DNA of 64,000 bases, from assembly GCA_041583775.1 (NCBI GenBank), contig JBFHFF010000003.1, forward strand, positions 28,547 to 92,546. Reading direction: 5' to 3'. Shown in pieces: positions 7,672 to 52,985 of this stretch. The notes beneath the pieces were generated by a model. That model was not told the origin of the DNA. It was given only the letters and a program-made list of their open reading frames with translations, and searched no databases. Each line of letters starts with the position of its first letter. The stretch's first letter is position 1. The DNA comes from Candidatus Moraniibacteriota bacterium. Lineage in GTDB: Bacteria > Patescibacteriota > Minisyncoccia > Moranbacterales > DUUL01. Both the position numbers and the translations under genes were made by a program.

Positions 7672-7780
7672 TTTTCAGTTTACGATTAAATTCAAGGTAG
7701 AAATTCTGCCTTGAATTATTCCATTCTTATGATTTGGCTCTGGGCGTCTAATAGTGAGTTTAGGCTGTGAAAATAAGTTG

Positions 7781-8368: not shown

Positions 8369-8508
8369 TTTTGTTTTTTATAAATTTTGATATATTAATT
8401 TTGAATTAATTTGCTAATGTATGAATGTTTTATTGCCATTTTCATGCATTGTTGTTTTTTCATTTAATCTAACGGAGCTTGCCTTTGTGGGAATGATATC
8501 TGTTTAGT

Positions 8509-8538
8509 TAAATATGTAATTAATTACTTACATATTTA
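8509..8538. promoter_or_regulatory. Perfect 11-bp palindrome TAAATATGTAA-n8-TTACATATTTA (candidate operator)
   Basis: The inverted repeat is directly visible at 8509..8519 and 8528..8538. It sits in the 5' region of the minus-strand gene 7781..8368 and downstream of tRNA-Thr. Confidence 0.3.
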
Positions 8539-8712
8539 CTGGTTTTAATCGTTTGATTTATCCCCTTAGATTGAGAGGATGTTAGTTGTAGTCAGGAGCG
8601 TCGTGTTTTTGTCTAATCATTGGCAAGTTCAATCCACAGAACTTTAACCTATTCTAATTCTCACTTAATCTAAGAGGGGAGTAGGACTAGGCGCTAAATA
8701 CTCTAAACCTAG

Positions 8713-8785
8713 AGCTTCCTGTCAGGATCGAACTGACGACCTATGCGTTACGAGTGCATTGCTCTACCAACTGAGCTAAGGAAGC
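8713..8785 (-). tRNA. tRNA-Thr (anticodon CGU)
   Basis: Reverse complement folds as a canonical cloverleaf: acceptor GCTTCCT/AGGAAGC, D-arm GCTC-AGTTGGTA-GAGC, anticodon arm ATGCA-CTCGTAA-CGCAT (U33, anticodon CGT, A37), variable AGGTC, T-arm GTCAG-TTCGATC-CTGAC. One A-C mismatch at positions 31-39. No encoded CCA. Confidence 0.8.
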
Positions 8786-8853
8786 AAAAGTACCAAAGTC
8801 ATTGTATACTTATATTTTGATTTTTTCAACAATCTAATATATAATAATAACAT

Positions 8854-23367: not shown

Positions 23368-24432
23368 TTATTTTTGATAATTATAACTTTCTTTGAAAAT
23401 AACATCGTAGAGCTTTTCCACAAAGTCTGAGTTTAGTTTTGTGGCCTGTTTTCTTTTTTGAATAATTTCTTTTTCTCGTTTAGTATCAACAATCGTTAGC
23501 CTGTTTCTTTTCTTGTATGCACCTATTTTCTTTGCACAAGTCATTCTTTCTTCTAAGAGAGTAAAAATTTTTTGATCAATTGAATTAATCAACTTTCGGT
23601 TTGAATTAAACTCATTTGTTGTGCTCGCTTCTAAGATTTTCCCTTCAATTAAATCACAAGCTCTTAGGAATTCGACCCTAATTTTCGAAGAATAAGAATT
23701 ATAATTGTTCATATCATAAAAAAGCTGCCAGTCATCATTGTTGGTGTGGGGCAAGATTCTTAATAGATCTGTATATCCAGGGGTAAAAATTTCTTGTTCC
23801 CCGATCCCAGCCTTAGTAAGGGAGCGTCCCAAAAAATGAACAAAACTCAGGGTTTTAGCATTTTGTTTGTCATGTTCTTTGGGTGAGACTATTAAGACTT
23901 TTAGTTTAAGCTTTTCTAGGAAAATTTTCAAAGAAGCTAGTTTCTCTTCAGAAACTCTTATTGGACATAAAACTACTTGTTTATTTTCTAATTCAAAATA
24001 TTTTTTATTAAGATTGAATTTTGTTGTTACCGAACCAAACATAGGATGGGATCCAATAATTTCATTTTCTTTTGGAAGATATTTTTTTAACCATTTGCAC
24101 GGCAACTCTTTAACAGAGCAGGTGTCAATTATGGTTGTTTTTGGTTTTAATAAGGGGGCTATTTTTTTAATCAAATTTTCTGTTTTTGAGATAGGAACTG
24201 ATAGAAGAAGATAGTCACAATCAATAACCTCCTTAAAATCAACCAATTTAATTCCTATTTTATTGGCTATTTCTAAATCCGCATCCCTTTTTCGATAATG
24301 GAAAACCTTTACATCAAAAAAACTACTTAAAACAGTCGCCATTAAAACACCAAATCTACCAAAACCAATTATTCCAATTTCAATCTTATTTTTCATATAA
24401 ATGTCAAACTTAATTTCTTTTAGTTGCAGCAA
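23368..24432 (-). CDS. tyrA: Bifunctional prephenate dehydrogenase / chorismate mutase, with the AroQ-type CM domain at the C-terminus
   Basis: N-terminal Rossmann motif (IGIIGFGRFGVLMA) and the TyrA catalytic region. The C-terminal ~85 aa (RKLINSIDQKIFTLLEERMTCAKKIGAYKKRNRLTIVDTKREKEIIQ) match the chorismate mutase type II helix-bundle pattern. Confidence 0.7.
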   Translation of the reverse strand: MLQLKEIKFDIYMKNKIEIGIIGFGRFGVLMATVLSSFFDVKVFHYRKRDADLEIANKIGIKLVDFKEVIDCDYLLLSVPISKTENLIKKIAPLLKPKTTIIDTCSVKELPCKWLKKYLPKENEIIGSHPMFGSVTTKFNLNKKYFELENKQVVLCPIRVSEEKLASLKIFLEKLKLKVLIVSPKEHDKQNAKTLSFVHFLGRSLTKAGIGEQEIFTPGYTDLLRILPHTNNDDWQLFYDMNNYNSYSSKIRVEFLRACDLIEGKILEASTTNEFNSNRKLINSIDQKIFTLLEERMTCAKKIGAYKKRNRLTIVDTKREKEIIQKRKQATKLNSDFVEKLYDVIFKESYNYQK

Positions 24433-28102: not shown

Positions 28103-28798
28103 ATGTATTACGATAAATTTATCGAATTTGCGATTATACGAGGTGGAGTACCGGATGCAACGGTTGTGCTTATTTTAATGTTGCCAATTGTTGTTACGAT
28201 AATAGCGTTTTTTAGACAAGTGATTGGAATTAAGGCATTTGGTATTTACACCCCTGCCCTTATAACATTTGCATTTGCTGCGATTGGCTCAGAAGCAGAA
28301 AGTGTTTGGAAGGGTGGTGTCTACGGAGTCACCATTTTCATTGCTGTTATTTTTGTGGGGACAATGGTGAGATATGTTTTGAAGGGATTTCGCCTTTTAT
28401 ATCTTCCAAGAGTGGCACTGCTTATTACTATTGTTTCGTTATCAACTCTAGTTCTTTTAATAATTGGGGGAATGTCTCAAAGGACTGGGTTAGCAAGCGT
28501 TTCCATTTTTCCGATTTTGATTATGATTGCACTTGTTGAAAAATTTGTAGCAACTCAAATCGAAAAAGGTGCTAGAGCTGCAATCATTCTTTCATTTGAA
28601 ACATTGTTAATTTCATTAGTTTGTTATGCTGTTTTGACATGGGAGTCTTTGATTAGATTTGTATCGGTACATTCCTGGGTCGTGCTTTTTACAATTATAA
28701 TAAATATCTTTCTTGGAAAATGGACGGGACTTCGTTTAAGTGAAATGTTTAGATTTAAAGATGTTATCAAAAATGCTGAACACAATGATAAGAACTAA
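28103..28798 (+). CDS. Polytopic (about 7 TM) membrane protein of the type associated with RimK-like ligase/protease systems (7TM_transglut-like)
   Basis: 231 aa with about 6-7 hydrophobic helices. Its 3' end overlaps the ATP-grasp/protease gene. This is the canonical 7TM partner position in the three-component ATP-grasp/retropepsin systems. Confidence 0.5.
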   Translation: MYYDKFIEFAIIRGGVPDATVVLILMLPIVVTIIAFFRQVIGIKAFGIYTPALITFAFAAIGSEAESVWKGGVYGVTIFIAVIFVGTMVRYVLKGFRLLYLPRVALLITIVSLSTLVLLIIGGMSQRTGLASVSIFPILIMIALVEKFVATQIEKGARAAIILSFETLLISLVCYAVLTWESLIRFVSVHSWVVLFTIIINIFLGKWTGLRLSEMFRFKDVIKNAEHNDKN

Positions 28799-30176
28799 GG
28801 GAATTCTGGGAATGAATGCCCGGAACCTAAAATATATAAGACCATACAATCTTAAGGGTCCAAAGCGTTTAGCAGATGATAAACTTCGTTGCAAGAACGT
28901 TTTTAAAAAAGGTGGAATTCCAGTGCCAGAGTTGATTGCTAAAATTAAAACAAAAGAAGAGCTTGATAAATTTGATTTCTCTTCTTTGCCAAACAGTTTC
29001 GTTTTGAAACCGAACTTTGGTTTTGGTGGGGAGGGAATTTTGGTTGTTTATGGAAAGAAAAAAAAGAAAGATAATGTTTGGGTGAAAGCAAATAGAGATC
29101 CGGTAACGGAGGATGACTTAAGAACTCACATTTGGAATATTTTAGATGGTTCTTTTTCTCGAACTAACACTGCTGATATTGCATTTTTCGAAGAAAGAAT
29201 TCAACTTTTAAAACTTTTTAAGCCGTATGCATTTAAGGGAATTCCTGATATTCGCGTAATTGTTTTCAATCGCGTTCCAGTTATGGCAATGCTCAGACTT
29301 CCAACAGAAGCTTCTGGTGGAACTTCAAACGTTCATCAAGGAGGAATCGCTGTTGGAATTGATATGGCTACAGGTGTAACAACAACAGCCATTCAATATA
29401 ACCGTACAGTTGAATATGCCCCAGGAACAAGATTGCTTTTGAGCGGAATCAGAATTCCAAATTGGAAGGAGATATTAAGGTTAGCAATCAAATCACAGGA
29501 TGTTTCAAAATTGGGCTATTTAGGTGCTGATATTGCAATTGATAGAATTAAGGGACCAGTTTTTATGGAAATCAACGCCCGTCCAGGTCTTGCAATTCAA
29601 AATGCCAACCAAGATGGACTTCTTTCCCGTCTTCAGAGAGTTGAGGGCTTGAAAGTGAAAACTGTTTCACAGGGCGCCGCTTTAGCACAGAATCTTTTTG
29701 GAGGAGAAATCGAAGAAGAGATTGAGGAGCTCTCGGGAAAGAAAATTATTGGCTTGATTGAGAAAGTGAAACTGAAAAGTACTGACGGAAGGATTATCGA
29801 AATAGAAGCAAAGATAGATACAGGGGCAGATTCTTCTTCAATTGACACTGAGTTGGCAAGACAACTAGGTTTTGGCTCGACAATTGATGAGTTTCATAAG
29901 ATAGATATTTCTGGATATGATATTTTGCCCGAAAAAGAGAAAAAAATAAAAGAAGATTTTATGAAAAAATTTGGAGAACAAGTTCCAAATTTAGAAAATA
30001 TTGCAGTTGTTTTTTCTTCCTCAGGAAAATCAATTCGTCCTGTTGTTAAATGTTTATTCTCCATGGATGATGAGGTAGTAATATCCAAGATGAATATTAC
30101 AGATAGAAGTAAATTGAAATACCAAATGATTGTTGGAAGAAAGGATTTGAAGAAATTTTTAATTGAAATCAGCTAA
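28785..30176 (+). CDS. Alpha-L-glutamate-ligase-like ATP-grasp enzyme fused to a C-terminal retropepsin-like aspartic protease domain (DUF785/Zn_protease type). The track ORF starts at 28740; an internal start at MIRTKGILGMNARN is likely.
   Basis: The N-terminus (GILGMNARNLKYIRPYN...DDKL...K) matches the rimK-related ligase family start. ATP-grasp core (GFGGEGI, ...EINARPG). C-terminal ~140 aa carry a retropepsin-like aspartyl-protease DTGA motif (GRIIEIEAKIDTGADSSSID). Confidence 0.7.
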   Translation: MIRTKGILGMNARNLKYIRPYNLKGPKRLADDKLRCKNVFKKGGIPVPELIAKIKTKEELDKFDFSSLPNSFVLKPNFGFGGEGILVVYGKKKKKDNVWVKANRDPVTEDDLRTHIWNILDGSFSRTNTADIAFFEERIQLLKLFKPYAFKGIPDIRVIVFNRVPVMAMLRLPTEASGGTSNVHQGGIAVGIDMATGVTTTAIQYNRTVEYAPGTRLLLSGIRIPNWKEILRLAIKSQDVSKLGYLGADIAIDRIKGPVFMEINARPGLAIQNANQDGLLSRLQRVEGLKVKTVSQGAALAQNLFGGEIEEEIEELSGKKIIGLIEKVKLKSTDGRIIEIEAKIDTGADSSSIDTELARQLGFGSTIDEFHKIDISGYDILPEKEKKIKEDFMKKFGEQVPNLENIAVVFSSSGKSIRPVVKCLFSMDDEVVISKMNITDRSKLKYQMIVGRKDLKKFLIEIS

Positions 30177-30192: not shown

Positions 30193-31845
30193 ATGTTTAA
30201 AGAAAATCAATTTCTGAGAAAAATTAGTGAAAGAGAGGGGAATAATGGGAAAGTAGTTGAATATTCCGAGAAAGCATATGATGATTTGGATGAAAATGTT
30301 AAAAATAGATTTTTAGAAAAAAAACAAAAAGAACTTGGTTTCAGCTATGTTAACGGTGGAGAAGAGACCTCTATTTTGATTTCTGGCTCACACGCCGCAG
30401 ATTTAGCAAAAACTAGTTTAAACATAGATAAAGATGAGATAGAATTCCTAAACAAGGAAGAGGAAAGAGGAGAGAGATATCGAATGGATGATGATGAAAA
30501 GTTGATGATAGGGAAACATTATATTAACGCTTCAGTGAGGGAGAAAAAAATAGGAGAATACAAGGCAGATTCTGGTGTTAGTGCAATGGGTATCGAATTG
30601 CAAGACGATTTAATATTAAAAGATTCAAAGAGGGCTCCAAACTTATTGTTATATGAACTGCCACAAGTTTTTTCGGAACCAAACAAGGTTGATTCAAAAA
30701 GTAGGCCAATGGCAGTGGTTGATTTGTCTGTGTATAATAAATTTGGAATTCATAAGTTAGAACAATTTATAACAAGAAAAGGAGTGAGTTCCATAACCTC
30801 AGAAGAAGTAGCGCTTGTTAGGAGAGGAGACTATTCTAAAATTTCCGAAGATGAAATTGACTTAGATAAGAAAGGGGCCCTATTGGAGTGTGAAAAAATT
30901 GTTCAGGATTCAAAAGGGGACGAAGGAAAATATAGAAAAATCATAGCTTCTTTGGGAATTTTAAAAATTCACAGGAAATATTATGAGAAACAAGAAGAAT
31001 TATTATATGGAAATCCAGATGCTAAATTCCCAATAAATCTGGATATACACACAGCGTTTGATTCTCTAAAACAAGAAGAAGGCTTTGACGCTATCATAGG
31101 GTCACGAATGGGAAGTAGCGTTAGTGACCCAGAAGTTGAAATGCTATTCTCTTTAATTCTGAAAAAACATGGATTTAAAGTAAATCTTTCAAGTTTTAAC
31201 AATTTCCCCATAAAAGCTGGTGAAAAAGAAAAGGATGGGCTCAGGAGACTCTTGGAATCGACAAAAGCAATTTTGAGTCAGGAACAAGTGCAATTGCTTG
31301 ATGGAACTGAAGAAATGAAACAAAAGGAAGATGTCCTGGCACATTTAGATATTTTATTTGATAGAAGATTGGAAAAAATGGGAGATTCTAGAAAGCTTTT
31401 GTTAAGATTTTTAGACTGGAAAGATAAGCAAAACTTAGTTAATGAAAATAGTACAGATGATGAAATTAGGGATATTGCAAAGAAAGTTTTTCTAGAGGAA
31501 GCTACTGAATTTTCCTTGGAAAATCTTGTTCTTTTATTAAAACAAAACCTAGTTAATTTATTTTTAAGTGGCAAAACTCATGATGATCGCTTTAGAGGTG
31601 GTTTAATGGGCCTTTCATCTTTGCAGGATAAATTTGATGCCAAGGATAAATATGAAAAAGCTAGGGGTAGTAAAATTAATCCAGAGATTTTTCAAATAGA
31701 AATTATTGCAAGTATCATGAAGAATAAAAGCAAAAGAAAGGATTTTGAAGATGCTATAGAAGAATTTTTTAGTTTGGTGCAACAGAAAGATTTTGAGCCC
31801 AAAGAAGTGTTGAAAAAAATAATAAATCAACAGAATTTTAAATGA
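30193..31845 (+). CDS. Hypothetical 550-aa acidic/charged protein with no recognisable domain, embedded in the ATP-grasp operon
   Basis: Open frame with an ATGA stop/start overlap to the next ATP-grasp gene. Highly Glu/Lys/Asp-rich. No motifs recognised. Confidence 0.45.
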   Translation: MFKENQFLRKISEREGNNGKVVEYSEKAYDDLDENVKNRFLEKKQKELGFSYVNGGEETSILISGSHAADLAKTSLNIDKDEIEFLNKEEERGERYRMDDDEKLMIGKHYINASVREKKIGEYKADSGVSAMGIELQDDLILKDSKRAPNLLLYELPQVFSEPNKVDSKSRPMAVVDLSVYNKFGIHKLEQFITRKGVSSITSEEVALVRRGDYSKISEDEIDLDKKGALLECEKIVQDSKGDEGKYRKIIASLGILKIHRKYYEKQEELLYGNPDAKFPINLDIHTAFDSLKQEEGFDAIIGSRMGSSVSDPEVEMLFSLILKKHGFKVNLSSFNNFPIKAGEKEKDGLRRLLESTKAILSQEQVQLLDGTEEMKQKEDVLAHLDILFDRRLEKMGDSRKLLLRFLDWKDKQNLVNENSTDDEIRDIAKKVFLEEATEFSLENLVLLLKQNLVNLFLSGKTHDDRFRGGLMGLSSLQDKFDAKDKYEKARGSKINPEIFQIEIIASIMKNKSKRKDFEDAIEEFFSLVQQKDFEPKEVLKKIINQQNFK

Positions 31846-33617
31846 AAATTTCAGTAATAACCAAAAAAGAAACTTGGCAAACAAGGGAGTTGCAGAAAGA
31901 GTCTCGTAAAATGGGAATAGAGTTGGAGCTGAGAGATTTGGAGAATCTAAACCAGGGGATTGATGAGCTTGGGGATGTTGTGTTTTGGAGAGCAAATTCA
32001 ATGAATCTGTTCGATGGCGGAGCAGCTACAATTTCTCTTATCAAAAAGAGTGGTAGAATTATTGTGAGTCAAGGTATTTCAGAATTTCCATTTATTAGGA
32101 ACAAGCTTTTTCAGCAGAAATTTATAGAGGGTTTCAGTGGTATTAACACTATTGAAACATTTACTTTTGCAAACAAAGAAGATCTTGCCAGCTCTTTAGA
32201 AGAAGGAATTTTAAATTTTCCTTTTGTTCAAAAACCAGCAGTAGGCAGAAGAGGCGAGGGTGTTAAACTAATAGATTCTTGTGAATCTATGGAAAAACAA
32301 AGAGGTGAATATAGTAAAGTTGTTTATCAAAATTTTATAAAAAACAAAGGTGATTTTAGAGTGTTGGTATTGGGAGGAAAACCTCTCGGCGCAATAAAAA
32401 GGGTTGCAAGAAAAGGAAGCTTTTTAAATAATTTTTCTAAGGGAGGGACTTGCACCAACATTGATGATAAGGAAGTTAGAGAAATTTTGTTTGGAATTGC
32501 GATTAAAGTTGCTTCATATTTTAAATTAGCTTTTTGTGGTGTAGATATTATTTTTGATGAAAATAAAAAAAAGTATTTCTTCTTGGAAGTAAATACTCTC
32601 CCTCAATGGGAGGGTTTTCAGGGTGCTACAAATATTAATGTTTCTTTTGAGTTGCTGAATTTTTTTAAAGTTATGCACGAGAGGGGGAGAAGGGGTAGTA
32701 GAGAATTGGTATCCGAATATTATGAGGATAATTTAGACAAGCTTAGTTTTGAGAAGTCTTTTCATTATATTTCACGTTTGTTTCTTTGGGAAAACAGAAA
32801 AGAACTGTCAGTAAAATTAGAGTGTTTTAAGCAGGGTTTTATTGGTGAAACAGAAGATGATATTTTGGGAAATTTTAGAAAAACTTTTTCTGAAGTTGAA
32901 AAATATCAAGAAAGAGTGAAAAATGATATTTCAGCCAGAGAAAAATATATCAAAAAGTATCCTTTGCTGGGAGTTTATAATAGAATATTGTTTCAAGCGC
33001 TTATATCTAAAACAGTCTATAAAAAGGATGTGGCTGATATAGTTTCAAAAGTTTTGGACAGGGAACATGCTCTTAAAATGAGAGATGAACTCATGGGAGA
33101 TGAGGAGGCACTAAAATCTCTTTCTACGCATGCAATTAATTTTCTTTATTTTTCACAAGAGATTTTTGGTAAATTTTTTGAAGTCGATGTAAAAAAGTTA
33201 CACAGAATTTCAATTAGCGATTTTGGGAAGAGCGATGAGAGTTTGCTGCTTAAAATTTATTTCTTAACACACTGTATTATTGGTGAGTCGAGATTTTATT
33301 CTCAAGCAGTTAATGATGAAAAGGGTATTTATACAGAGATGATAAAAGCACTTGAAGAAATTATTAAAGAAAATTATTTTAGAGTTAGTTTGGACAATAA
33401 AATGGAGTTTCTTGTTTGTTCAAGAATGTGTGGCTTTAAGTCCTCAGTTGAGAAAATTTTGATTGCAGAGGCAGAAAGCTCTATGTCAGAAATTGGAAAC
33501 TATATTGTTGATATTTTAAATGCAAAAGGGGGGGATAAAAGAAAAAAAGATTTTTGGAACTCAGAACATAGAAATGTTTTATATTTAATGGCTACAAGTA
33601 AACTAAAAAAATGGTAA
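31842..33617 (+). CDS. RimK-family ATP-grasp ligase with a ~300-aa C-terminal all-helical extension of unknown function
   Basis: N-terminal ~290 aa are RimK-like (MKISVITKKETWQTRELQKESRKMGIELELRD...GDFRVLVLGGKPLGAIKRVARKGSFLNNFSKGGTCTNI...FFLEVNTLPQWEGF). The C-terminal 300 aa have no recognisable motif. Confidence 0.65.
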   Translation: MKISVITKKETWQTRELQKESRKMGIELELRDLENLNQGIDELGDVVFWRANSMNLFDGGAATISLIKKSGRIIVSQGISEFPFIRNKLFQQKFIEGFSGINTIETFTFANKEDLASSLEEGILNFPFVQKPAVGRRGEGVKLIDSCESMEKQRGEYSKVVYQNFIKNKGDFRVLVLGGKPLGAIKRVARKGSFLNNFSKGGTCTNIDDKEVREILFGIAIKVASYFKLAFCGVDIIFDENKKKYFFLEVNTLPQWEGFQGATNINVSFELLNFFKVMHERGRRGSRELVSEYYEDNLDKLSFEKSFHYISRLFLWENRKELSVKLECFKQGFIGETEDDILGNFRKTFSEVEKYQERVKNDISAREKYIKKYPLLGVYNRILFQALISKTVYKKDVADIVSKVLDREHALKMRDELMGDEEALKSLSTHAINFLYFSQEIFGKFFEVDVKKLHRISISDFGKSDESLLLKIYFLTHCIIGESRFYSQAVNDEKGIYTEMIKALEEIIKENYFRVSLDNKMEFLVCSRMCGFKSSVEKILIAEAESSMSEIGNYIVDILNAKGGDKRKKDFWNSEHRNVLYLMATSKLKKW

Positions 33618-34501
33618 AAAACTTCCTAATACTCTCGAGTGAGGGTGTGAAATTTGACTTTAGAAACAAAAGATTATCAGAAGAGATAGAAAAGAAAGGG
33701 TCCAGATTCGATATTGTTTTTGTTCAGGATCTTAGTATTTCTTGTGATAAAGTCGTTTTCAGAGATGAAGAAATAGATTTTTATAAATATGATTATATTA
33801 TCTCGGTAGGAACTCCTGATGCAAATCTTTACATAATTGATTTAGCAACTAAAAAAAATCCAAAAATTAAAGCCTGGCCAAATGTCCAGAACCATGGAAT
33901 GGTAGATAAATTTACAGAAGGAACGACTCTTGAGGCTATTGGAATCCCAATTCCGAAGACCACCCTCCTCGCTTTTTTGGAAGATGATTATATAAATAAA
34001 GAGGCTGAAATTGTCGGAGGTTTTCCTTGTGTGGCCAAAAAAGTTACAGGTGCTTCTGGAGATTATGTTGAGTTGGTTAATTCTTCTGATGAAATAAAAA
34101 AGTTTATTGAAAAACTTTCGGTTCCAAGCATAATTGGCAAAAGAAATATAATTTTACAAGAATATATAGAAGAGTCAAAGGGGACAGACTTTAGAGTTTA
34201 CTGTGTTGGAGATAAAGTTCTTGGTGCAATAAAAAGAACCGCCAAAGACGGCGGATTTAAAGCAAATGTCTCTTTGGGTGGAGATGCCGAAAAGGCTGAA
34301 ATTTCGAAAGAAATGAAGGAATATGCCCAAAAGATCATGCAAGCTAGTGGGCTTATGTTTGCTGGTATAGATTTTATCAAAAGCAATAGAGGTTATTTAG
34401 TTTTGGAGATAAATATATCAGCAAACTTTCAAGGATTTGAAACTGCAACCGGAGTTAATGTCGCAGGAGAAATTATTGAGAAATTCTTGGCATATGAATA
34501 G
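33611..34501 (+). CDS. RimK-family ATP-grasp ligase, paralog 3
   Basis: 296 aa, RimK-sized. ATP-grasp blocks GTDFRVYCVGDKVLGAIKRTAKDGGFKANVSLGG and GYLVLEINISANFQGFE. 7-nt overlap with the upstream gene. Confidence 0.75.
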   Translation: MVKNFLILSSEGVKFDFRNKRLSEEIEKKGSRFDIVFVQDLSISCDKVVFRDEEIDFYKYDYIISVGTPDANLYIIDLATKKNPKIKAWPNVQNHGMVDKFTEGTTLEAIGIPIPKTTLLAFLEDDYINKEAEIVGGFPCVAKKVTGASGDYVELVNSSDEIKKFIEKLSVPSIIGKRNIILQEYIEESKGTDFRVYCVGDKVLGAIKRTAKDGGFKANVSLGGDAEKAEISKEMKEYAQKIMQASGLMFAGIDFIKSNRGYLVLEINISANFQGFETATGVNVAGEIIEKFLAYE

Positions 34502-34529: not shown

Positions 34530-35423
34530 ATGAAGCATTTTTTAATTATATTCAAGGATAAAGTGAAAAGCGGATATAGAATTGATAGAGTTGTCACAGA
34601 GATAAAAAACGCTGGGCACGATGTTGATTTGGTTTGTAGTGTTGGAATGAAAATTACGGCTGCAGGCTTTTTGGTAGACAATAAAATTTTGAATTTGGCT
34701 AAGTACGATATCGTTTTTTCGATTGGCAATGGTGAACTACAGCATCAGCTTGCTACAGTTATTTCCTGTTATACCAAATCAGTTTTCTGGCCTGATAAAG
34801 AAGCTCTTTTTTATGATGATAAATTTAATGAAGCAGTTTTTATGGAGTCAATTGGTGTGCCTAAGCCGAAAACAATATTATTGACAAGTACGAAAAGTAA
34901 AGATATTGATGATTTGATTAAAGAGGTCGAGGGGTACCCATGCATTATTAAAAAAGCTATGGGCTCAGGAGGAGAATTTGTCGAGCTAGCGAATTCTAGC
35001 TCTGATGTATTGGATTTTTTAGATAAAGTGCCACATCCAAGTATAAGTGGAAAAAGAAACATTATTTTGCAAGAATACATAAAAGAATCAAAAGGCACTG
35101 ATTTTAGGGTTTTTTGTGTGGGAGAAAAAGTTCTCGGTACAATTAAAAGGACATCCAGAAACGGTGGATTTAAGGCAAATGTTTCTTTAGGAGGAAAAGC
35201 AGAGAAAGTTGAAATTTCTAAAGAGATGAAGGCATATGCTAAAAAGATTATGAAAGAGAGTAAACTTCTGATTGCTGGGATTGATTTCATAAAAAGCAAT
35301 AGAGGTTATTTAGTTTTGGAGATAAATATATCACCCGGTATTGAAGGTTTTGAAAAGGCAACCGGAGTTAATGTAGCTAAAAAGATTGTTTTAGGACTTC
35401 TCGAAAGAACACAACAAAAATAG
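34530..35423 (+). CDS. RimK-family ATP-grasp ligase, paralog 4 (recent tandem duplicate of 33611..34501)
   Basis: 297 aa. The C-terminal half is largely identical to paralog 3 (GTDFRVFCVGEKVLGTIKRTSRNGGFKANVSLGGKAEKVEISKEMKAYAKKIM...IDFIKSNRGYLVLEINIS). Confidence 0.75.
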   Translation: MKHFLIIFKDKVKSGYRIDRVVTEIKNAGHDVDLVCSVGMKITAAGFLVDNKILNLAKYDIVFSIGNGELQHQLATVISCYTKSVFWPDKEALFYDDKFNEAVFMESIGVPKPKTILLTSTKSKDIDDLIKEVEGYPCIIKKAMGSGGEFVELANSSSDVLDFLDKVPHPSISGKRNIILQEYIKESKGTDFRVFCVGEKVLGTIKRTSRNGGFKANVSLGGKAEKVEISKEMKAYAKKIMKESKLLIAGIDFIKSNRGYLVLEINISPGIEGFEKATGVNVAKKIVLGLLERTQQK

Positions 35424-35486: not shown

Positions 35487-37919
35487 ATGTTGTTAGTGAA
35501 ACTAGCGTTTCTTGCTATAGGAGTTTGGATATTGGCAAAGCTATTGCTGTCAAATAAAAACTTTAGAAATATGGGGAAGAAAAAAAATCGTAAAATGGAG
35601 ACTGATGAGAAAAAAGCGGAAAAGAAAAATCTCCTTAAAAAAATTCTCTGGGCCTCATTCTATTTTGGTGGGGTGGTTTTTTTGCTTGTAGTTGCTGCAA
35701 TTAGCTACTCCTTTGTTAAATATGCAAAGGATTTGCCGAACCCAGAAAAAGTCAATAGTCGTGTCGTTGCTGAATCGACAAAGATTTTTGATAGAACAGG
35801 AGATGTTTTGTTGTATGAAGTTTTCGGAGAAGAAAAAAGAACTATAATCCCAATGGAAGAAATTCCCGATTCAGTTAAATATGCAACAATCTCTTTAGAA
35901 GATAATATTTTTTACTCACATAATGGTTTTGACACAGGCGGTCTTATTAAGGCTGTTTGTCATGAGGTTTCTTCAAGGATTGGATTGGGAGATTTAGGCG
36001 GTCTTTGTCCTCAAAGAGGTGGTTCTACCATTACTCAACAATTTATCAAAAATTCAATTTTAACATCTGAAAGAAGCTATGAAAGAAAATTAAAAGAGCT
36101 TATTTTAGCAGTGGAAATGGAACAGAAATTTTCTAAGGATGAGATTTTGAGAATGTATCTAAACGAGATTCCCTATGGTTCCAATGCTTATGGTATTGAG
36201 GCCGCAGCACAAACCTTTTTCGGAGTACATGCAAGGGAATTAACATTAGCACAATCAGCTTTGTTGGCTGGGTTGCCCAATGCTTCAACTTTTTATTCTC
36301 CCCATGGTTCGAATACTGATCGTTTATTGGTTCGTTGGAAGAAAGCTTTGAATTTGATGACCGATTTGGGTTATATAACAAGAGAGCAGGCAGACGCAGC
36401 AATGACAGAGGATATTTTAGGTCAGATAAAACCAATAAAGGCGGATATCAAGGCGCCTCATTTTGCATTATATGTCAGGGAGAAATTGATTGAGGAATTT
36501 GGCGAAGAAAAATTGAAAGAAAAAGGCTTGAAAATTTATACAACACTTGATTGGGACCTGCAACAACTTGGTGAACGAGTTGTTAAAGAAGGTGTCGAAA
36601 AAAATGGCGAAAGGTATGGATTTACAAATTCAGCATTAGTTGCAACAAATCCTAAAAATGGACAAGTTTTGGCAATGGTTGGGTCAAAGGATTATTTTGA
36701 TGAATCAATTGATGGGAATGTTAATGTTACGACGCGTTTGAGACAGCCTGGTTCGTCTGTGAAGCCATATGTATATGCGCAAGCTTTTGCTGAAGGTTTT
36801 CAGCCAGATACAATGCTTTATGATGTCGAGACTAAGTTTTCTGAATCTGAAAATGAAGACGAAGAATATAAACCACAGAATTATGATGGTAAATTTAGAG
36901 GACCAGTAACTATGAAACAAGCATTGGCAACCTCGCTTAATGTTCCAGCAGTTAAAACACTATATCTAGCGGGAATGAAGCCAACAATAAAATTGATGAA
37001 TTCTATGGGGATAACAACTCTTACCGATCCTTCTCGTTATGGACTTTCCTTGGTGTTGGGAGGTGGAGAAGTTAAATTGATTGAACATGTTGGAGCTTTT
37101 GGAGTTTTTGCAAACGAGGGTGTAAAACAGGAGCAATCAGTTATTTTGAAAGTAGAAGATGCAGACGGGAATATTTTAAGGGAATTTAAAGAAAGCGAGG
37201 GAAAGCAAGTTTTGGATAAAAAAGTTGCTGCACAAATTTGTTCTATTTTATCTGATAACAACCTAAGAGCATCCGCATTTGGAGTGCAAAATCCTTTGAA
37301 TATCGAGGGAAAAAGTGTAATTGCAAAAACTGGAACAACAAATGAATATCGTGATGGTTGGTTAGTTGGAGCTTCTCGTTCTTTGGCAGCTGGTGTTTGG
37401 TCTGGGAATAACGATAATACAGCTATGAAAGTTGGAGCTGCTGGTGCAAACATTTCTGGTCCAACTTGGCACGCTTTTATGGAGGAGGCACTAAAGAATT
37501 ATCAAGATGAAGAGTTCCCAAAAATAGAAGATATAGAAGCAGAGTCTGATGGTGACAGTGAGGAGGGGCAGGATGATGAAGAAAAAGTGAGTTATGAAAA
37601 GAAGACAGGTATGTTATATGGGAAAGTTGATTTTGTTCAACAAGTTAAAGTTTGTAAATATGACGATGGTAAATATTGTTTAGAAAATAGTAGCTGTCCC
37701 GAGAAAAAAGTTGAAAAGAAAAAATATTTCACAGGACATACTATTTTATATTATATAGACAAGGACGACCCAACCGGGGATGCTCCAAAAGATCCAAATA
37801 AGGATCCTCAATATAAAAATTGGGAAAAGGCGGTTACGAAGTGGGGAGAGGAGCATGCTGATGACAAAGGGCGTGATTTGCCCCCAGAAAAGGAATGCAA
37901 GGACAGTTATTTTGACTAG
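35487..37919 (+). CDS. Class A penicillin-binding protein (bifunctional transglycosylase/transpeptidase, PBP1A-like) with a Cys-containing C-terminal extension
   Basis: GT51 motifs (EDNIFYSHNGFD, GGSTITQQFIKN, RMYLNEIPYG). Transpeptidase motifs (SSVKP, SLN, KTGTT). An N-terminal TM anchor. A ~130-aa C-terminal tail with Cys residues. Confidence 0.8.
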   Translation: MLLVKLAFLAIGVWILAKLLLSNKNFRNMGKKKNRKMETDEKKAEKKNLLKKILWASFYFGGVVFLLVVAAISYSFVKYAKDLPNPEKVNSRVVAESTKIFDRTGDVLLYEVFGEEKRTIIPMEEIPDSVKYATISLEDNIFYSHNGFDTGGLIKAVCHEVSSRIGLGDLGGLCPQRGGSTITQQFIKNSILTSERSYERKLKELILAVEMEQKFSKDEILRMYLNEIPYGSNAYGIEAAAQTFFGVHARELTLAQSALLAGLPNASTFYSPHGSNTDRLLVRWKKALNLMTDLGYITREQADAAMTEDILGQIKPIKADIKAPHFALYVREKLIEEFGEEKLKEKGLKIYTTLDWDLQQLGERVVKEGVEKNGERYGFTNSALVATNPKNGQVLAMVGSKDYFDESIDGNVNVTTRLRQPGSSVKPYVYAQAFAEGFQPDTMLYDVETKFSESENEDEEYKPQNYDGKFRGPVTMKQALATSLNVPAVKTLYLAGMKPTIKLMNSMGITTLTDPSRYGLSLVLGGGEVKLIEHVGAFGVFANEGVKQEQSVILKVEDADGNILREFKESEGKQVLDKKVAAQICSILSDNNLRASAFGVQNPLNIEGKSVIAKTGTTNEYRDGWLVGASRSLAAGVWSGNNDNTAMKVGAAGANISGPTWHAFMEEALKNYQDEEFPKIEDIEAESDGDSEEGQDDEEKVSYEKKTGMLYGKVDFVQQVKVCKYDDGKYCLENSSCPEKKVEKKKYFTGHTILYYIDKDDPTGDAPKDPNKDPQYKNWEKAVTKWGEEHADDKGRDLPPEKECKDSYFD

Positions 37920-47823: not shown

Positions 47824-49146
47824 GTGCAAATAAAGAAGCCCAAAGTATTAATGTTTGGTTGGGAATTCCCACCGTATAGTGTGGGTGGTCTTGGTGTTGC
47901 TTGTTATGGCCTAACTAAGAGTATGACAAAGCTTGGTATGGAAATCACCTTTGTTGTTCCGAAAGCTCCGAAAAACGCTAAAAACCACTTCCTAAATTTG
48001 TTAGTCGCTGATAGGATAGCGATAGGGATGAGTGATGTGGAGGAGATCGAGGGAATTAATTTGCAAAAAGTTGATTCTTTGTTAATGCCCTATATGGACG
48101 CTAAAAAATATTCTTCATTGGTTGAATATTTGAAAAAAAGAGGTGGAACAATTGAAAATTTTATTTATTCAAGTGAGTCTAAGGACTTTGATTCTAAAAA
48201 TCAATATGGCCTAAACCTATATGAAGAAGTTTGGCGATATGCAAATAAAGCTGCTATAATAGCAAGAAAGGAGAATTTTGATGTAATTCATGTGCATGAC
48301 TGGATGACTTTTCAAGCAGGAATAATTGCAAAAGAAATTAGTGGAAAACCCCTTGTTATTCACATTCACAATACAGCTTTTGATAGAAGCGGGGGGCATC
48401 CTGGACGAAGAGAATTTGAAATTGAAAAAGAAGGTTTCGAGAAAGCCGACAGAATCATTGCAATTAGTAATTATGTAAAAAATAAATTGCTAAAACATTA
48501 CGGAGTGGATCCTAACAAAATTATTGTTGCACACAATGGAATTGACGCGGAGGATTATTGTTTTAAAAACTCAGAAAGAAATATTAATAACAAAATAGTT
48601 TTGTATGCAGGAAGAGTTACTTTACAAAAAGGACCAGAATACTTTGTAAAAGCAGCTGCAAAAATTTGTCAAACAAGAGATGACATCACATTTATTTTAG
48701 CTGGTGGTGGTGATATGTTAATCAGTATGATTGAACTCGCTGCCCATTTAAAAATTTCCGATAAATTTGTTTTTACTGATTGGTATAGCAAACAAGAGGG
48801 GGAGAAATTAATGAATATGGCTGATGTATTTGTAATGCCTTCAGTATCAGAACCATTTGGACTCGTTCCTCTTGAGGCAATGTTGCAACGCACGCCAACG
48901 ATAATCTCAAAGCAGTCTGGAGTAAGTGAGGTCTTGGAAAATTCTTTAAAAGTTGATTTTTGGGATATAGATGAGCTGGCAAATAAAATAGCATCAGTGT
49001 TGGATTATGATTCTCTTAGAAGTCATCTTGTTGAAATGGGAGAGAAAGAGGCAAAATCAATGACATGGGACAAGGCCGCTTTGGAATGTAAAAGAGTTTT
49101 TGAAAAATTGATTTATGAACACAAGATGTCAGAAAATTGTTACTAA
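47824..49146 (+). CDS. Glycogen/alpha-glucan synthase-like glycosyltransferase (short archaeal-type GT-B)
   Basis: N-terminal FPPYSVGGLGVACYGL, analogous to the K-T-G-G-L donor motif of glycogen synthases. C-terminal EPFGLVPLEAM. 440 aa. Followed by GH57 and GH15 genes. Confidence 0.55.
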   Translation: MQIKKPKVLMFGWEFPPYSVGGLGVACYGLTKSMTKLGMEITFVVPKAPKNAKNHFLNLLVADRIAIGMSDVEEIEGINLQKVDSLLMPYMDAKKYSSLVEYLKKRGGTIENFIYSSESKDFDSKNQYGLNLYEEVWRYANKAAIIARKENFDVIHVHDWMTFQAGIIAKEISGKPLVIHIHNTAFDRSGGHPGRREFEIEKEGFEKADRIIAISNYVKNKLLKHYGVDPNKIIVAHNGIDAEDYCFKNSERNINNKIVLYAGRVTLQKGPEYFVKAAAKICQTRDDITFILAGGGDMLISMIELAAHLKISDKFVFTDWYSKQEGEKLMNMADVFVMPSVSEPFGLVPLEAMLQRTPTIISKQSGVSEVLENSLKVDFWDIDELANKIASVLDYDSLRSHLVEMGEKEAKSMTWDKAALECKRVFEKLIYEHKMSENCY

Positions 49147-49167
49147 CTAATTTTACCAAGAGATAAG

Positions 49168-50379
49168 ATGCCAAATATTTGTTTTTATTTTCAAGTTCAT
49201 CAACCATATAGAGTTAAAAACTATAAAGTTTTTGACATTGGAAAGGATCATGAGTATTTTAATGATAACTCTGAAGGTGATTTGAATAATAGCTGGATTA
49301 TTCAAAAAGTTGCTAGAAAATGTTATTTACCAACAAATAAACTTCTATTAGAGTTACTGAAAAAACACCCTGAATTTAGGATAAGCTTTTCCTTTTCCGG
49401 TGTTTATCTCGATCAATTGGAACGATTTGCTCCAGCAGTTCTAAGTTCATTTCAAGACTTAGTTGCAACTGGAAGGGCTGAGGTCTTGAGTGAAACCTAT
49501 TATCATTCATTGGCATTTTTATATTCAAAAGATGAATTTGTTTTCCAAGTGGAAAAGCACAAGGATAAGGTGGCAAAGTTATTTGGTGTTAAGCCAACAG
49601 TTTTTCGTAATACCGAATTGATATATAACAATGATTTAGCGAAAAAAGTCGAATCAATGGGCTATAAGGGGGTTATAGCCGAGGGTGCGGACAAGGTATT
49701 GTCATGGAAGAGCCCAAATTTTCTTTATGAGGCCGCAGGATGTGATAATTTGAAGTTATTGTTGAAAAATTACAAATTATCTGATGATATAGCATTTCGT
49801 TTTTCGGATCACAATTGGGCAGAGCATCCATTGTCAGCAAAGACTTTTGCTGATTGGGTTTCAAATCACAACGGGGAAGGAGAGCTTATAAATTTATTTA
49901 TGGATTATGAGACATTTGGAGAGCATCAATGGGAGGATTCTGGGATATTTGATTTTCTTCGGCATCTTCCAGACTTTGTTTTACAAAATCCTTCAAATGG
50001 ATTCATAACTCCAAGCGAAGCCATTGAAACTCTTGAAAGTAGAGGCAAAATAGATTTTTTTGATTTTATTTCATGGGCTGATGAAGAGAGGGATCTTTCT
50101 GCTTGGCGCTCAAATGTTTTACAGACTGATGCCCTAGAAAAGGTTTATGCAATTGAAAAAGATGTTTTGAATACTAAAGATGAAAAAATAATTGATGATT
50201 GGAGGAAGCTGCAAACTTCTGACCATTTCTATTATATGTGTACAAAATATTTTGCCGATGGTGATGTTCATAAATATTTTAATCCATACGAAACTCCGCA
50301 TGATGCATTTATTTCTTTTATGAACGCTTTAAGTGATATGAAAATTAGAGTTAATAGGCACAATGTGGCAAATGTTTAA
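49168..50379 (+). CDS. Glycoside hydrolase family 57 protein (alpha-glucan-acting)
   Basis: The N-terminal FYFQVHQPYR block is the GH57 hallmark. (beta/alpha)7-barrel catalytic region. 403 aa. Confidence 0.6.
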   Translation: MPNICFYFQVHQPYRVKNYKVFDIGKDHEYFNDNSEGDLNNSWIIQKVARKCYLPTNKLLLELLKKHPEFRISFSFSGVYLDQLERFAPAVLSSFQDLVATGRAEVLSETYYHSLAFLYSKDEFVFQVEKHKDKVAKLFGVKPTVFRNTELIYNNDLAKKVESMGYKGVIAEGADKVLSWKSPNFLYEAAGCDNLKLLLKNYKLSDDIAFRFSDHNWAEHPLSAKTFADWVSNHNGEGELINLFMDYETFGEHQWEDSGIFDFLRHLPDFVLQNPSNGFITPSEAIETLESRGKIDFFDFISWADEERDLSAWRSNVLQTDALEKVYAIEKDVLNTKDEKIIDDWRKLQTSDHFYYMCTKYFADGDVHKYFNPYETPHDAFISFMNALSDMKIRVNRHNVANV

Positions 50380-50441
50380 AGAATAAATAAAAAAGTTAAA
50401 ATTGAATCAAATCAAAATATTTAAATTTTATTAAAAACAAA

Positions 50442-50948
50442 ATGAGTTTATTTAAAAGACTTATTGTTCAGTCAGAAGAAGATGAAAATGGGGACAATAA
50501 TAATGATGTAGTGACAAAAGAAGATATTAAGGAGGTGTCAACGGAAGATGTTGTAGTAAAAGAGCAAGCCATCCAGAAAGAGCTAATAGAAGAAGATACA
50601 GTGGCTCAAGAAAATAAAATGGAGAAGTTATTGCGGGGCAATGATAGTGAAGAAAAAGAAGAGGAGATGGAGCAAAAAGATGTTGTCAAAAAAATAAGAG
50701 TTTTCGATACATCCCCGAATGAAGATTTTTGGTTTCACTATGGACCAGTTGTAAAAAATCTTGCCGAACTAAGGGATGCTTTTTTGCAGATTGATGATAA
50801 TCTTTATAATTATCACGCAAACGGAAATGAAAACGATTTTGAAGTTTGGATTAAAGATGTTTTTGGATATGAAGAGTTAGCTAAAAAAATCGGGAGTGCT
50901 AAGACTAGAAAAAAAGCTCATAAGATACTAGAAGATGCAGTGGAATAA
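50442..50948 (+). CDS. Hypothetical acidic protein (Glu/Asp-rich N-terminus, conserved C-terminal ~70 aa)
   Basis: Open 168-aa frame between the GH57 and GH15 genes. No recognisable motif. Confidence 0.35.
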   Translation: MSLFKRLIVQSEEDENGDNNNDVVTKEDIKEVSTEDVVVKEQAIQKELIEEDTVAQENKMEKLLRGNDSEEKEEEMEQKDVVKKIRVFDTSPNEDFWFHYGPVVKNLAELRDAFLQIDDNLYNYHANGNENDFEVWIKDVFGYEELAKKIGSAKTRKKAHKILEDAVE

Positions 50949-51023
50949 GAATTGGAAGGAAAGTATATTTTAGCTAATTGGTTTTTAAAAAGATGATAAA
51001 ATAAGTTTTGAGACAAAAGTAAA

Positions 51024-52985
51024 ATGCCAAAATCTTTAGTACTAGGAAACGGAAACATGCTTTTATGCTTTGACAACAAAGCGCGTGTTTGTGACTTTTA
51101 TTATCACTATGTTGGCTTGGAAAATCATGCTGGCAGTGGTTGTGTCCATAGAATTGGAATTATGATTGATGGTCAGTTTTCATGGATTGAAGAGTCTGCT
51201 TGGAAAGTTGAGATGGCGTATCAAAAAGACTCTTTAGTTTCAAAAGTTAGTATGAATAATGAGCAACTTGGAATCAGACTTAATTTTAGAGATGCGGTGT
51301 ATAATGAAAAGTGTATCTTTCTAAGAAAGGTTACTGTGGAAAATTTATGGGATAACAAGAGACAAATAAAAATATTTTTTCATCAACAATTTAGAATCTA
51401 TGATACTGAGAGAAGAGATACTGGTTATTATGATCCTGATAGAAAAGTAATAACTCACTATGAGGGGCGAAGAGTTTTTGTTGTTGGTGGAAGACAAGGG
51501 CAAAAGAGTTTTGATGATTATTGTGTTGGTAATTATGGCATTGAAGGCAAGATAGGGACCTGGAAAGATGCTGAAGATGGTATATTAGAAAAAAACCCAA
51601 TTGAGCATGGGCCAGTTGACTCTGTTATTGCCTTCACTTTCGAAGTTGAGGGGAATGGTAGAAAAACTGTTAATTATTGGATTGCTGCAGCTAAAGTATT
51701 AGCAGAAGCTAGGAATTTACATGAGTATGTTCTGGCAAGAACGCCCAATCATTTATTGGAATCAACAGAAGATTATTGGAGGGCTTGGGTGAATAAAAAT
51801 AAGATAGATTTTAAAAATCTGGATGAGGAATCAATTGATTTATTTAAAAGATCTTTATTGGTAATAAGTACACACTCAGGTAATGAAGGTGGGATAGTGG
51901 CATCCGCTGATTCAGATATGTTGCAATACGGGCGTGATACATATGCATATGTATGGCCAAGAGATGGAGCTTTTGTTGCCATGTCATTAATTCAAACTAA
52001 ACATTTTTCAATTGCCAGAAAGTTTTTTGAATTTTGTAATGATGTAATTAGTGAGGATGGTTATTTCTTTCATAAATATCGAAGTGATAAATCAATCGGA
52101 AGTTCTTGGCATCCTTGGTCTAGAGACGGGAAAAAACAACTTGCAATTCAAGAAGATGAAACTGCTTTAATATTGTATTCGCTTTGGGAGTATTATGAGG
52201 CAAGTTTAAATATCGAATTTATTGAAAGTGTTTATAACTCATTGATTAAAAAAGCAGCTGAGTTTATGTATCACTATCGAGATAAAAGAACTGGCTTGCC
52301 AAAAGAGAGTTATGATTTATGGGAGCAAGATTACGGGATATCAACATTTACTTCCAGTACAGTGTATGGGGGTCTTATGGCAGCAAGTAAGTTTGCTGAA
52401 GTGCTTGGTAAAGAGGAGGACGCAAAGAAATATAGTCACGAAGCAGAGGAAATAAAAACTCTTATTATAAAATATTTGCATAACAGCAATAATGGTTATT
52501 TTTACAAGAGAATTACTTCGAGTAAAGAGGATTTTGGTTTTGATGACACGATTGATATCAGTAGTTTTTTCGGTTTGTTTTATTTTGGTATAATTGACAT
52601 TGACGATCCGATGCTTGGTGATGCTTTTGATGTCGTTGAAAGAGAACTTTTTTGTAAAACTAAAATTGGTGGAGTGATGAGATATGTTGGTGATAAATAT
52701 CACCAAGTTCATAATGATATGACCGGAAATCCATGGATTATTACAACTCTTTGGGTTGCTCAATATCGAATAAAGAAGGCAAAAAATATTAATGATTTAA
52801 ATGAAGTTAAAAATATTTTTAAATGGGTTTGTGATAGAATGACAACTGCAGGTATTTTGCCGGAACAGGTAAATTCAGACACGGGAGAGCATCTTTCTGC
52901 GGCACCGCTTACATGGAGCCATTCTGAATATGTGACAACAGTTATTCAATATTTAAACAAAAGAGAAGAAATCGAGAATCATTAG
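51024..52985 (+). CDS. GH15 family glucoamylase/glucodextranase-like enzyme (archaeal-type, with N-terminal beta-sandwich domain)
   Basis: (alpha/alpha)6-barrel region with YVWPRDGAFVAMSL and LWEQDYG-type acid/base blocks typical of GH15. N-terminal GNGNMLLCFD domain. 653 aa. Confidence 0.6.
   Translation: MPKSLVLGNGNMLLCFDNKARVCDFYYHYVGLENHAGSGCVHRIGIMIDGQFSWIEESAWKVEMAYQKDSLVSKVSMNNEQLGIRLNFRDAVYNEKCIFLRKVTVENLWDNKRQIKIFFHQQFRIYDTERRDTGYYDPDRKVITHYEGRRVFVVGGRQGQKSFDDYCVGNYGIEGKIGTWKDAEDGILEKNPIEHGPVDSVIAFTFEVEGNGRKTVNYWIAAAKVLAEARNLHEYVLARTPNHLLESTEDYWRAWVNKNKIDFKNLDEESIDLFKRSLLVISTHSGNEGGIVASADSDMLQYGRDTYAYVWPRDGAFVAMSLIQTKHFSIARKFFEFCNDVISEDGYFFHKYRSDKSIGSSWHPWSRDGKKQLAIQEDETALILYSLWEYYEASLNIEFIESVYNSLIKKAAEFMYHYRDKRTGLPKESYDLWEQDYGISTFTSSTVYGGLMAASKFAEVLGKEEDAKKYSHEAEEIKTLIIKYLHNSNNGYFYKRITSSKEDFGFDDTIDISSFFGLFYFGIIDIDDPMLGDAFDVVERELFCKTKIGGVMRYVGDKYHQVHNDMTGNPWIITTLWVAQYRIKKAKNINDLNEVKNIFKWVCDRMTTAGILPEQVNSDTGEHLSAAPLTWSHSEYVTTVIQYLNKREEIENH

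Follow-up and report, generated by a model that had tools for sequence, protein, structure and literature searches.

A toroid-fold, DUF3541-like domain paired with a RimK-family ligase in Patescibacteria

Results

A RimK-family ligase fused to a helical domain

The 64,000-nucleotide stretch of Candidatus Moraniibacteriota bacterium DNA analysed here (assembly GCA_041583775.1, contig JBFHFF010000003.1, positions 28,547 to 92,546 of the forward strand; hereafter the window, from whose first letter all positions are counted) carries an open reading frame (ORF) at 31842..33617 on the plus strand that starts with ATG and encodes 591 amino acids. The ORF joins a RimK-family ATP-grasp ligase to a C-terminal domain of about 300 residues, which we call domain X. 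Its first 4 nt (ATGA) also belong to the end of the preceding gene, and its last 7 nt are already part of the following one, which begins at 33611; the genes are thus tightly packed and probably co-translated (Table 1). An initial annotation made from the sequence had described a RimK-type ligase with a helical extension of about 300 residues, and this was borne out by Pfam, phmmer and Foldseek and by the all-helical structure predicted for X, which starts at about residue 288, inside the SRELVSEYYEDNLDKL stretch named in that annotation.

Table 1. Features of the operon and of the fusion protein in the window
Feature	Position	Strand	Basis
Seven-transmembrane (7TM) protein, 231 residues; C-terminal half of RloB, without the inactive transglutaminase domain	28103..28798	+	PF14402 7e-28
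RloC-like ATP-grasp (ATPgrasp_ST / TIGR02291) fused to RimB/RloA-like retropepsin	28740..30176	+	PF14397 2e-69, PF05618 6e-8
550-residue K/E/D-rich charged protein, lineage-specific operon insert	30193..31845	+	stop overlaps start of the RimK::X gene
N-terminal 'X-type' RimK-family ATP-grasp ligase domain, residues 1-289 of the fusion	31842..32708	+	Pfam, Foldseek, conserved residues
C-terminal domain X, residues 290-591 and stop; alpha/alpha-toroid, DUF3541-like, Patescibacteria family	32709..33617	+	
Motif HYISRLFLW (H308 100%, R312 99%, W316 95%)	32763..32789	+	169-sequence conservation
Motif LSTHAINFLY (S428, T429, N433, Y436; 93-98%)	33120..33149	+	169-sequence conservation
Motif THCIIGES (T476, H477 99%; Cys not conserved family-wide)	33267..33290	+	169-sequence conservation
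Motif LDNKMEFLV (D518 and E522 100%, K520 98%)	33390..33416	+	169-sequence conservation
Motif SEHRNVLY (E575 and H576 100%, R577 96%, N578 98%)	33561..33584	+	169-sequence conservation
Canonical RimK paralog 2	33611..34501	+	TIGR00768 174.5 bits vs 143.4 cutoff
Canonical RimK paralog 3	34530..35423	+	TIGR00768 165.9 bits vs 143.4 cutoff
Class A penicillin-binding protein (PBP), transglycosylase and transpeptidase, PBP1a	35487..37919	+	PF00912, PF00905

Enzymes of the RimK family turn a C-terminal carboxylate into an acyl-phosphate, to which an amino acid is then added. The ligase half of the fusion (residues 1 to about 287) matches Pfam RimK (PF08443) at 2e-23 over residues 101-273 (83.4 bits, cutoff 21) and, weakly, Rimk_N over residues 1-58; phmmer finds E. 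coli RimK (5zct/4iwx, 9e-13). When the full-length AlphaFold model was compared with known structures by Foldseek, the best match was ArgX (3vpb, E 4e-16, template modelling (TM) score 0.81 over the target), followed by RimK and LysX; TM scores of 0.74-0.81 to these three enzymes place the ligase half in the three-subdomain ATP-grasp fold. Ten residues are invariant in 43 fusion homologs (K131, Q163, D171, R173, R187, N196, N197, G201, D235 and E249) and an eleventh, N251, is present in at least 90% of them. Those among them that bind ATP and Mg (K131, Q163, D171, R173, R187, D235, E249 and N251, with K131 as the ATP-binding Lys and D235, E249 and N251 as Mg ligands) are thus invariant or nearly so, and the ligase half therefore looks catalytically competent.

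The fused ligase departs from canonical RimK in its substrate loop. It scores 113.2 bits on TIGR00768, below the cutoff that both neighbouring paralogs pass (Table 1), and it has FLNNFSKGG as its lower substrate loop in place of the FRSNLHRGG of RimK_EC. In RimK_EC the loop residues are R211, H215 and R216 (PMC10092738); the equivalents of R211 and H215 are L and S in the fused ligase. It retains the equivalents of R189 and N262, two residues that touch the poly-Glu chain in RimK_PA (PMC10092738). The patterns NN.S.GG and E.NT.PQW are conserved throughout the aligned fusion homologs. By these sequence characters the fused ligase domains are a conserved, divergent subfamily of their own (hereafter X-type) among the RimK/LysX-type ATP-grasp ligases, and the loop changes suggest that its specificity is altered.

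The fusion itself is genuine and recurrent. An exhaustive hidden Markov model search with the profile of the C-terminal domain over 1.84 billion cluster representatives returned 651 proteins at E<=1e-3, 326 of them at E<=1e-30, and 168 homologs in total were fetched for counts of length and architecture. Stand-alone X proteins of 295-350 residues account for 101 of the 168 (about 60%), while 42 are 560-620 residues long with X at about 285-600, the architecture of the window ORF; all ten of the latter that were scanned or aligned have an N-terminal RimK. Another seven homologs are 744-770 residues long, and Pfam scans of long forms (P0098, P0102 and P0123) showed RimK, X and a PF05618 retropepsin in one chain. 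Fragments that combine X with PF05618 were also seen, by Pfam scan in P0092 and in the precomputed Pfam annotation of P0026 and P0027. The domain is therefore found both fused to and side by side with ATP-grasp ligases in other genomes, as the initial annotation had proposed to look for, and that annotation was also right that canonical RimK and LysX enzymes lack such an extension.

The long ORF might instead have been an artefact of assembly or sequencing that joined a RimK gene to an adjacent stand-alone X gene. Such an accident would need a single indel, because in many relatives the two genes are separate and overlap by 4 nt at stop and start (ATGA, for example 7063-8004 and 8001-8924 in locus L004); by the same token, fusion and fission are each a single mutation away. 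However, ORF analysis found a single RimK::X ORF in 37 of 88 loci, and the architecture is shared by dozens of independent assemblies. The closest relative found (L008, Patescibacteria bacterium UBA2772) is a 592-residue protein with 58% identity over 586 residues, collinear and free of gaps across the junction. A rough neighbour-joining and parsimony estimate gives about ten or more changes of architecture among 83 X domains. Moreover, the fused ligase domains make up their own conserved subfamily, and the junction is modelled as continuous, confident helices. The artefact is thus refuted for practical purposes, and comparison with homologs revealed no frameshift or mis-join. In the AlphaFold2 model of the full-length protein (pLDDT 93.8, pTM 0.92) residues 280-300, which span the junction, have a pLDDT of 93-96, suggesting that RimK::X folds as a rigid two-domain body rather than as beads on a string.

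A toroid fold and a conserved set of polar residues in domain X

In Pfam the window copy of X matches DUF3541 (PF12060) at 16.0-17.2 bits over profile positions 74-300 of 330, below the gathering threshold of 28.2. The same profile is matched, at E<=1, in a consistent register and with a best value of 9e-10, by 76 of the 101 stand-alone X members, and no other family is matched by more than five of them. For these reasons we regard X, on profile similarity, as a divergent branch of the DUF3541 superfamily, although the window copy and most of its relatives remain under the threshold and only a few, such as P0043 (29.4 bits), exceed it. The extension thus resembles a DUF family, below threshold, rather than a common characterised domain, and the initial annotation was right to call it uncharacterised.

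Other searches added little to this assignment. X has no match in NCBIfam, PHROGs or PADLOC; a defence or phage function was rejected for want of a PHROGs or PADLOC match, and no relatives of X were found in viral contigs. Sequence searches of the PDB, both with the single sequence and with a 101-sequence profile, gave chance matches only. Homologs carry the label 'hypothetical' in their source databases, and a second profile search of a large protein database brought in more 'hypothetical proteins' of Patescibacteria and nothing else, stopping short of the canonical DUF3541 members. A search of the literature for DUF3541, PF12060 and IPR021928 found nothing relevant. Paralogy of X with the 550-residue protein encoded upstream was also considered and rejected, BLASTP finding nothing.

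The fold is better defined than the family. The predicted structure of X is similar, over most of the domain, to several unrelated families of alpha/alpha-toroid (six-hairpin) proteins, among them terpene cyclases, GH88, GH15, transcobalamin and the regulatory subunits of phosphorylase kinase, at sequence identities of 5-13%. We consider the toroid architecture established at the level of the model, but we do not assign X to any one family of toroid enzymes. Elsewhere in the window a GH15 that is unrelated to X in sequence, and is a bona fide six-hairpin protein, is encoded in a glycogen-like cluster at 47824-52985 (+) that also holds a GT4/GT5 glycosyltransferase and a GH57.

Conservation within X was measured on 169 sequences from a library clustered at 50% identity, in which overall identity is about 30-35%. 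Six residues are present in every sequence (H308, Y473, D518, E522, E575 and H576), twelve more in 95-99% (R312, W316, R366, S428, N433, T476, H477, Y486, K520, E543, R577 and N578), and T429 and Y436 in 93%. The motifs in which most of them lie (Table 1) fall at the N-termini of predicted helices, the place where alpha/alpha-toroid enzymes have their active sites. We infer that the conserved residues of X form a single pocket at one mouth of the toroid. The cysteine of the THC motif (C478) is V in P0002 and A in P0026 and P0027, and no cysteine of X reaches 90% conservation; a LanC-like zinc cyclase, which would need a Cys/Cys/His site, was therefore rejected.

Domain X and the X-type ligase form a unit

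A scan of one genome per species found X in 176 genomes, the best 80 of which are overwhelmingly Patescibacteria: Moraniibacteriota, Paceibacteria, Saccharibacteria, Gracilibacteria, Dojkabacteria, Altimarinota and Minisyncoccota. A few metagenome-assembled genomes from bulk submissions bear other names in their records, for example 'uncultured Bdellovibrionales'. Taken together, these pattern-based scans suggest that X is restricted to Patescibacteria.

In the loci so collected we called ORFs throughout, searched them with the window proteins and clustered them. In this clustering X is present in 81 of 84 non-duplicate loci, and RimK-type ligase genes lie beside X in nearly every locus long enough to show its neighbours. 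The proposal in the initial annotation that the extension is specific to this system is thus upheld as far as its company is concerned, but X more often has a gene of its own. Most loci also contain a retropepsin, which belongs to a stand-alone cluster in 30, is fused to ATPgrasp_ST in 25, as in the window, and is fused to X in about ten.

Two arrangements recur. Type A comprises the window and mainly records named Moraniibacteriota, Paceibacteria or Parcubacteria, and has the order 7TM protein, ATPgrasp_ST::retropepsin, zero or more RimK genes, RimK::X (or an ATP-grasp gene followed by X), zero or more further RimK genes, and class A PBP. Type B, from Saccharibacteria, either reads RimK(-) RimB(-) X(+) RimK(-) by dnaJ/dnaK or consists of RimK::X::retropepsin followed by RimK. 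In ten Saccharibacteria loci (L022, L029, L032, L042, L043, L045, L050, L052, L055 and L057) single polypeptides of about 755-773 residues, matched at about 7100-9400 in most of them, precede a canonical RimK gene. Judging by their size and by the Pfam content of P0098, P0102 and P0123, these proteins should combine an X-type ligase, X and a RimB-like retropepsin.

The association of X is with one kind of ligase in particular. In 21 type B loci the RimK gene adjoining X was best matched by the fused N-domain of the window in 21 of 22 cases, whereas the RimK on the other side of X matched the canonical paralogs in 21 of 21; in L001, the one locus checked, it is this second RimK that adjoins RimB. 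The X-adjacent ligases share with the fused domain an E[VI]NSQPQ loop wherever that region was displayed, and two of the four loci displayed have hLNNtSxGG. The cultivated Saccharibacterium Southlakia epibionticum ML1 has RimK and a PF05618 protease beside dnaJ (SEML1_0781-0784; supplement of PMC10633639), but its syntenic site lacks both X and the second ligase gene and holds instead a 1053-residue DUF2339-like protein. These counts, together with the absence of both from the ML1 site, indicate that X and the X-type ligase behave as one present-or-absent unit, separate from the canonical RimK-RimB. We conclude that the two are, on the evidence of gene order and sequence, an obligate pair, encoded side by side or fused, and in Saccharibacteria also fused to a RimB-like retropepsin.

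Genes around the fusion

The window operon is, to judge from its protein families, a merger of a Rlo-like set (RloC-like ATP-grasp, RloA-like retropepsin and the 7TM half of RloB), a Rim-like set (two canonical RimK paralogs that pass TIGR00768) and X. The first gene encodes the 7TM protein, which aligns with the RloB profile NF052267 over positions 312-508 of 508 only, at 74 bits against a cutoff of 900; proteins of this type occur in 20 related loci and are similarly short, with a median of about 230 residues. The RloC-like ATP-grasp scores 292.6 bits on TIGR02291 (cutoff 314.2) in a full-length alignment, and the retropepsin forms the C-terminal part of the same protein (residues about 330-478), with its DTGA motif intact; fused as it is to an ATP-grasp, it is presumably cytoplasmic. 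This gene is annotated from a GTG that gives it 59 nt in common with the 7TM gene; translation may in fact begin at a Met further on. The charged protein that precedes the fusion has no match in Pfam, NCBIfam or PADLOC, and among the loci searched its homologs occur only in L010 (558 residues) and L008 (split into three ORFs).

At the other end of the operon, the class A PBP lies beside the ligase/X module in 19 related loci from diverged Patescibacteria, nearly always directly downstream and on the same strand, a link that may be functional or mere conserved synteny. In L004 the PBP is followed by RuvA, FemAB and a Mur ligase.

This neighbourhood invites a reading in which X is an autonomous six-hairpin enzyme, of the glycoside hydrolase, lyase or epimerase type, that acts on a sugar-containing envelope precursor (for example a peptidoglycan or teichuronopeptide-like one), the ligases adding amino acids to a glycan-linked substrate; the operon would then serve envelope modification and not be a protein-tail system. 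Besides the PBP, a 'sugar-transfer-associated' ATP-grasp and a 7TM protein in the operon speak for it, as do the invariant Asp, Glu, His and Tyr of X, which are typical of such enzymes, its resemblance at the level of the fold to GH105, GH88 and AGE, and the cell-shape, osmotic and beta-lactam phenotypes of Pseudomonas rlo mutants (PMC12239564). Yet X has neither a signal peptide nor a transmembrane segment and is fused to a cytoplasmic ligase, and no glycosidase family of Pfam, GH88 and GH105 included, is matched by any of the 101 members. In Saccharibacteria, furthermore, the module sits by DnaJ/DnaK without PBP, 7TM protein or ATPgrasp_ST, so that the PBP link may reflect lineage synteny, and the closest structural relatives of the ligase, ArgX, LysX and RimK, all modify the C-terminal end of a protein that docks on them. 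We therefore think this reading rather improbable.

Elsewhere in the window, a 1037-residue leucyl-tRNA synthetase (58073-61186, +) carries between its editing and anticodon-binding domains a Ser_hydrolase / alpha-beta-hydrolase insert (PF06821, 6.6e-16, residues 480-630), which is unusual for this enzyme. In a 638-residue protein (330-2246, -) three DUF5648 repeats precede a SpoIID domain, a cell-wall related module. At 23368-24432 (-) a prephenate dehydrogenase with a C-terminal chorismate mutase type II adjoins a class I/II aminotransferase; genes of aromatic amino-acid biosynthesis are somewhat unexpected in a Patescibacteria-like genome.

Discussion

RimK is the poly-alpha-L-glutamate ligase of ribosomal protein S6 (RpsF) and is accompanied by the retropepsin RimB. 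The system described here resembles RimABK of E. coli and Pseudomonas in the ATP-grasp fold and catalytic residues of its ligase, in the genomic coupling of that ligase to a PF05618 retropepsin-like peptidase and in the presence of canonical RimK paralogs in the window operon. It differs in the score of the fused ligase under the TIGR00768 cutoff, in the R211 to L and H215 to S changes, in the lack of a RimA (EAL) gene and in having a toroid partner, which is part of no described Rim system; the RpsF of this organism is not encoded in the window. LysX and ArgX, of which ArgX is the structure closest to the N-domain, attach an amino acid to the C-terminal end of a partner protein that docks on them. 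Here, in contrast, neither a LysW-like zinc-ribbon carrier nor genes of lysine or arginine biosynthesis were detected in the cluster, and the fused ligase scores 70.5 bits on NCBIfam LysX against a cutoff of 275.6. That X itself is a LysW-like carrier with a modified C-terminus was rejected as unlikely, because the C-terminal end of X varies, is not acidic and, in the triple fusions, lies inside the chain.

With RloABC of Pseudomonas aeruginosa (mBio 2025, PMC12239564) the window shares an RloC-like ATP-grasp, an RloA-like retropepsin and an RloB-like 7TM protein. However, Pseudomonas RloA is secreted, whereas the window retropepsin has no signal peptide and is part of a cytoplasmic ATP-grasp protein; the periplasmic inactive-transglutaminase domain, the defining part of proteobacterial RloB, is missing from the 7TM protein; and the Rlo-like genes share their operon with RimK paralogs and with X, which lies outside the described Rlo system. 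Both RimB and RloA cleave poly-Glu (PMC12239564). Lanthipeptide synthetases of the LanM/LanKC kind likewise fuse an alpha/alpha-toroid domain to an ATP-using domain, but X lacks their conserved Cys/Cys/His zinc site and has no sequence similarity to them, and no precursor-peptide gene is evident. A component like X thus appears in no described Rim, Rlo or LysX system, nor elsewhere in the literature searched.

We lean, with modest confidence, towards the view that X is an obligate substrate-handling, and possibly catalytic, partner of the X-type ligase in a Rim/Rlo-like ligase-peptidase operon. This view rests on the fusions that place X between ligase and peptidase, on the rigid docking predicted for the two domains, on the pairing of X with one ligase subfamily and on the conserved acid/base and basic residues. 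The X-type ligase would join amino acids to a C-terminal carboxylate by way of an acyl-phosphate, and X would offer a conserved polar pocket at the mouth of the toroid, presumably turned towards the active site of the ATP-grasp domain, that engages the acceptor or the product of the ligase. The pocket might either select and hold that acceptor or product or carry out a follow-up acid/base or metal-dependent step, catalysis and specific binding being roughly equally likely within this model. Ligase, X and peptidase would then act on one substrate, as their recurrent fusions strongly indicate, and where they are encoded separately the split forms would be expected to assemble into a complex. The suggestion in the initial annotation that the extension recognises a substrate or binds a partner survives in part: recognition is possible, but some 20 near-invariant residues favour a catalytic or ligand-specific pocket over passive docking.

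Several points weigh against this view. A search of the literature yielded no biochemical or genetic data on X, and a high pTM is only a proxy for a fixed interface. X domains are neutral to acidic overall (median isoelectric point 6.25), which disfavours simple electrostatic binding of a poly-glutamate chain and leaves a role as a global poly-anion binder or clamp unsupported. Finally, RimK and the PF05618 protease of ML1, the sole Saccharibacterium with transposon-sequencing data, are non-essential in those data (supplement of PMC10633639), and the module may thus be only conditionally important.

A non-catalytic role for X must also be weighed. As a regulatory or scaffold subunit it could tune the ligase or tether it to the retropepsin, perhaps in response to a small-molecule ligand, much as RimA and RimB control RimK in Pseudomonas or as the inactive GH15-like domains of phosphorylase kinase alpha/beta do in that enzyme. 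The predicted rigid docking on the ligase and the position of X between ligase and peptidase in the triple fusions would suit such a subunit, partner proteins are known to control RimK activity (PMC10092738, PMC7343187), and a ligand-sensing pocket would explain the conserved polar residues equally well. Nevertheless, about 20 near-invariant polar residues, six of them at 100%, in a family of about 30-35% identity exceed the conservation usual for a scaffold, and we hold this explanation to be as doubtful as that of an autonomous envelope enzyme.

If X is instead, as a substrate-handling partner might be, a catalyst, it could represent an unrecognised family of toroid-fold enzymes that performs a new step on a peptide-tailed substrate, such as trimming, isomerising or editing the product of the ligase. 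Together with the ligase and the retropepsin it would make up a cycle of three enzymes that modifies proteins or the envelope in a way specific to Patescibacteria and distinct from the poly-glutamylation of RpsF. This extended proposal is tentative, and we consider it possible but on the unlikely side.

Few bacterial systems are known that build and trim peptide tails after translation, and RimK/RimB and the recently described Rlo are two of them. Although the genomes of Patescibacteria are very small, a cluster of four to seven ligase and peptidase genes is kept, together with X, in many of their lineages. The ligase-X and ligase-X-protease fusions give a compact, single-polypeptide version of this machinery for expression and assay, the ligand of the X pocket could reveal what such ligases modify in organisms that are hard to study, and a function for X would be the first for the DUF3541 superfamily. 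The finding is not a new principle: it is a known kind of ligase with a conserved, uncharacterised toroid partner, and it offers a tractable lead into peptide-tail modification in Patescibacteria.

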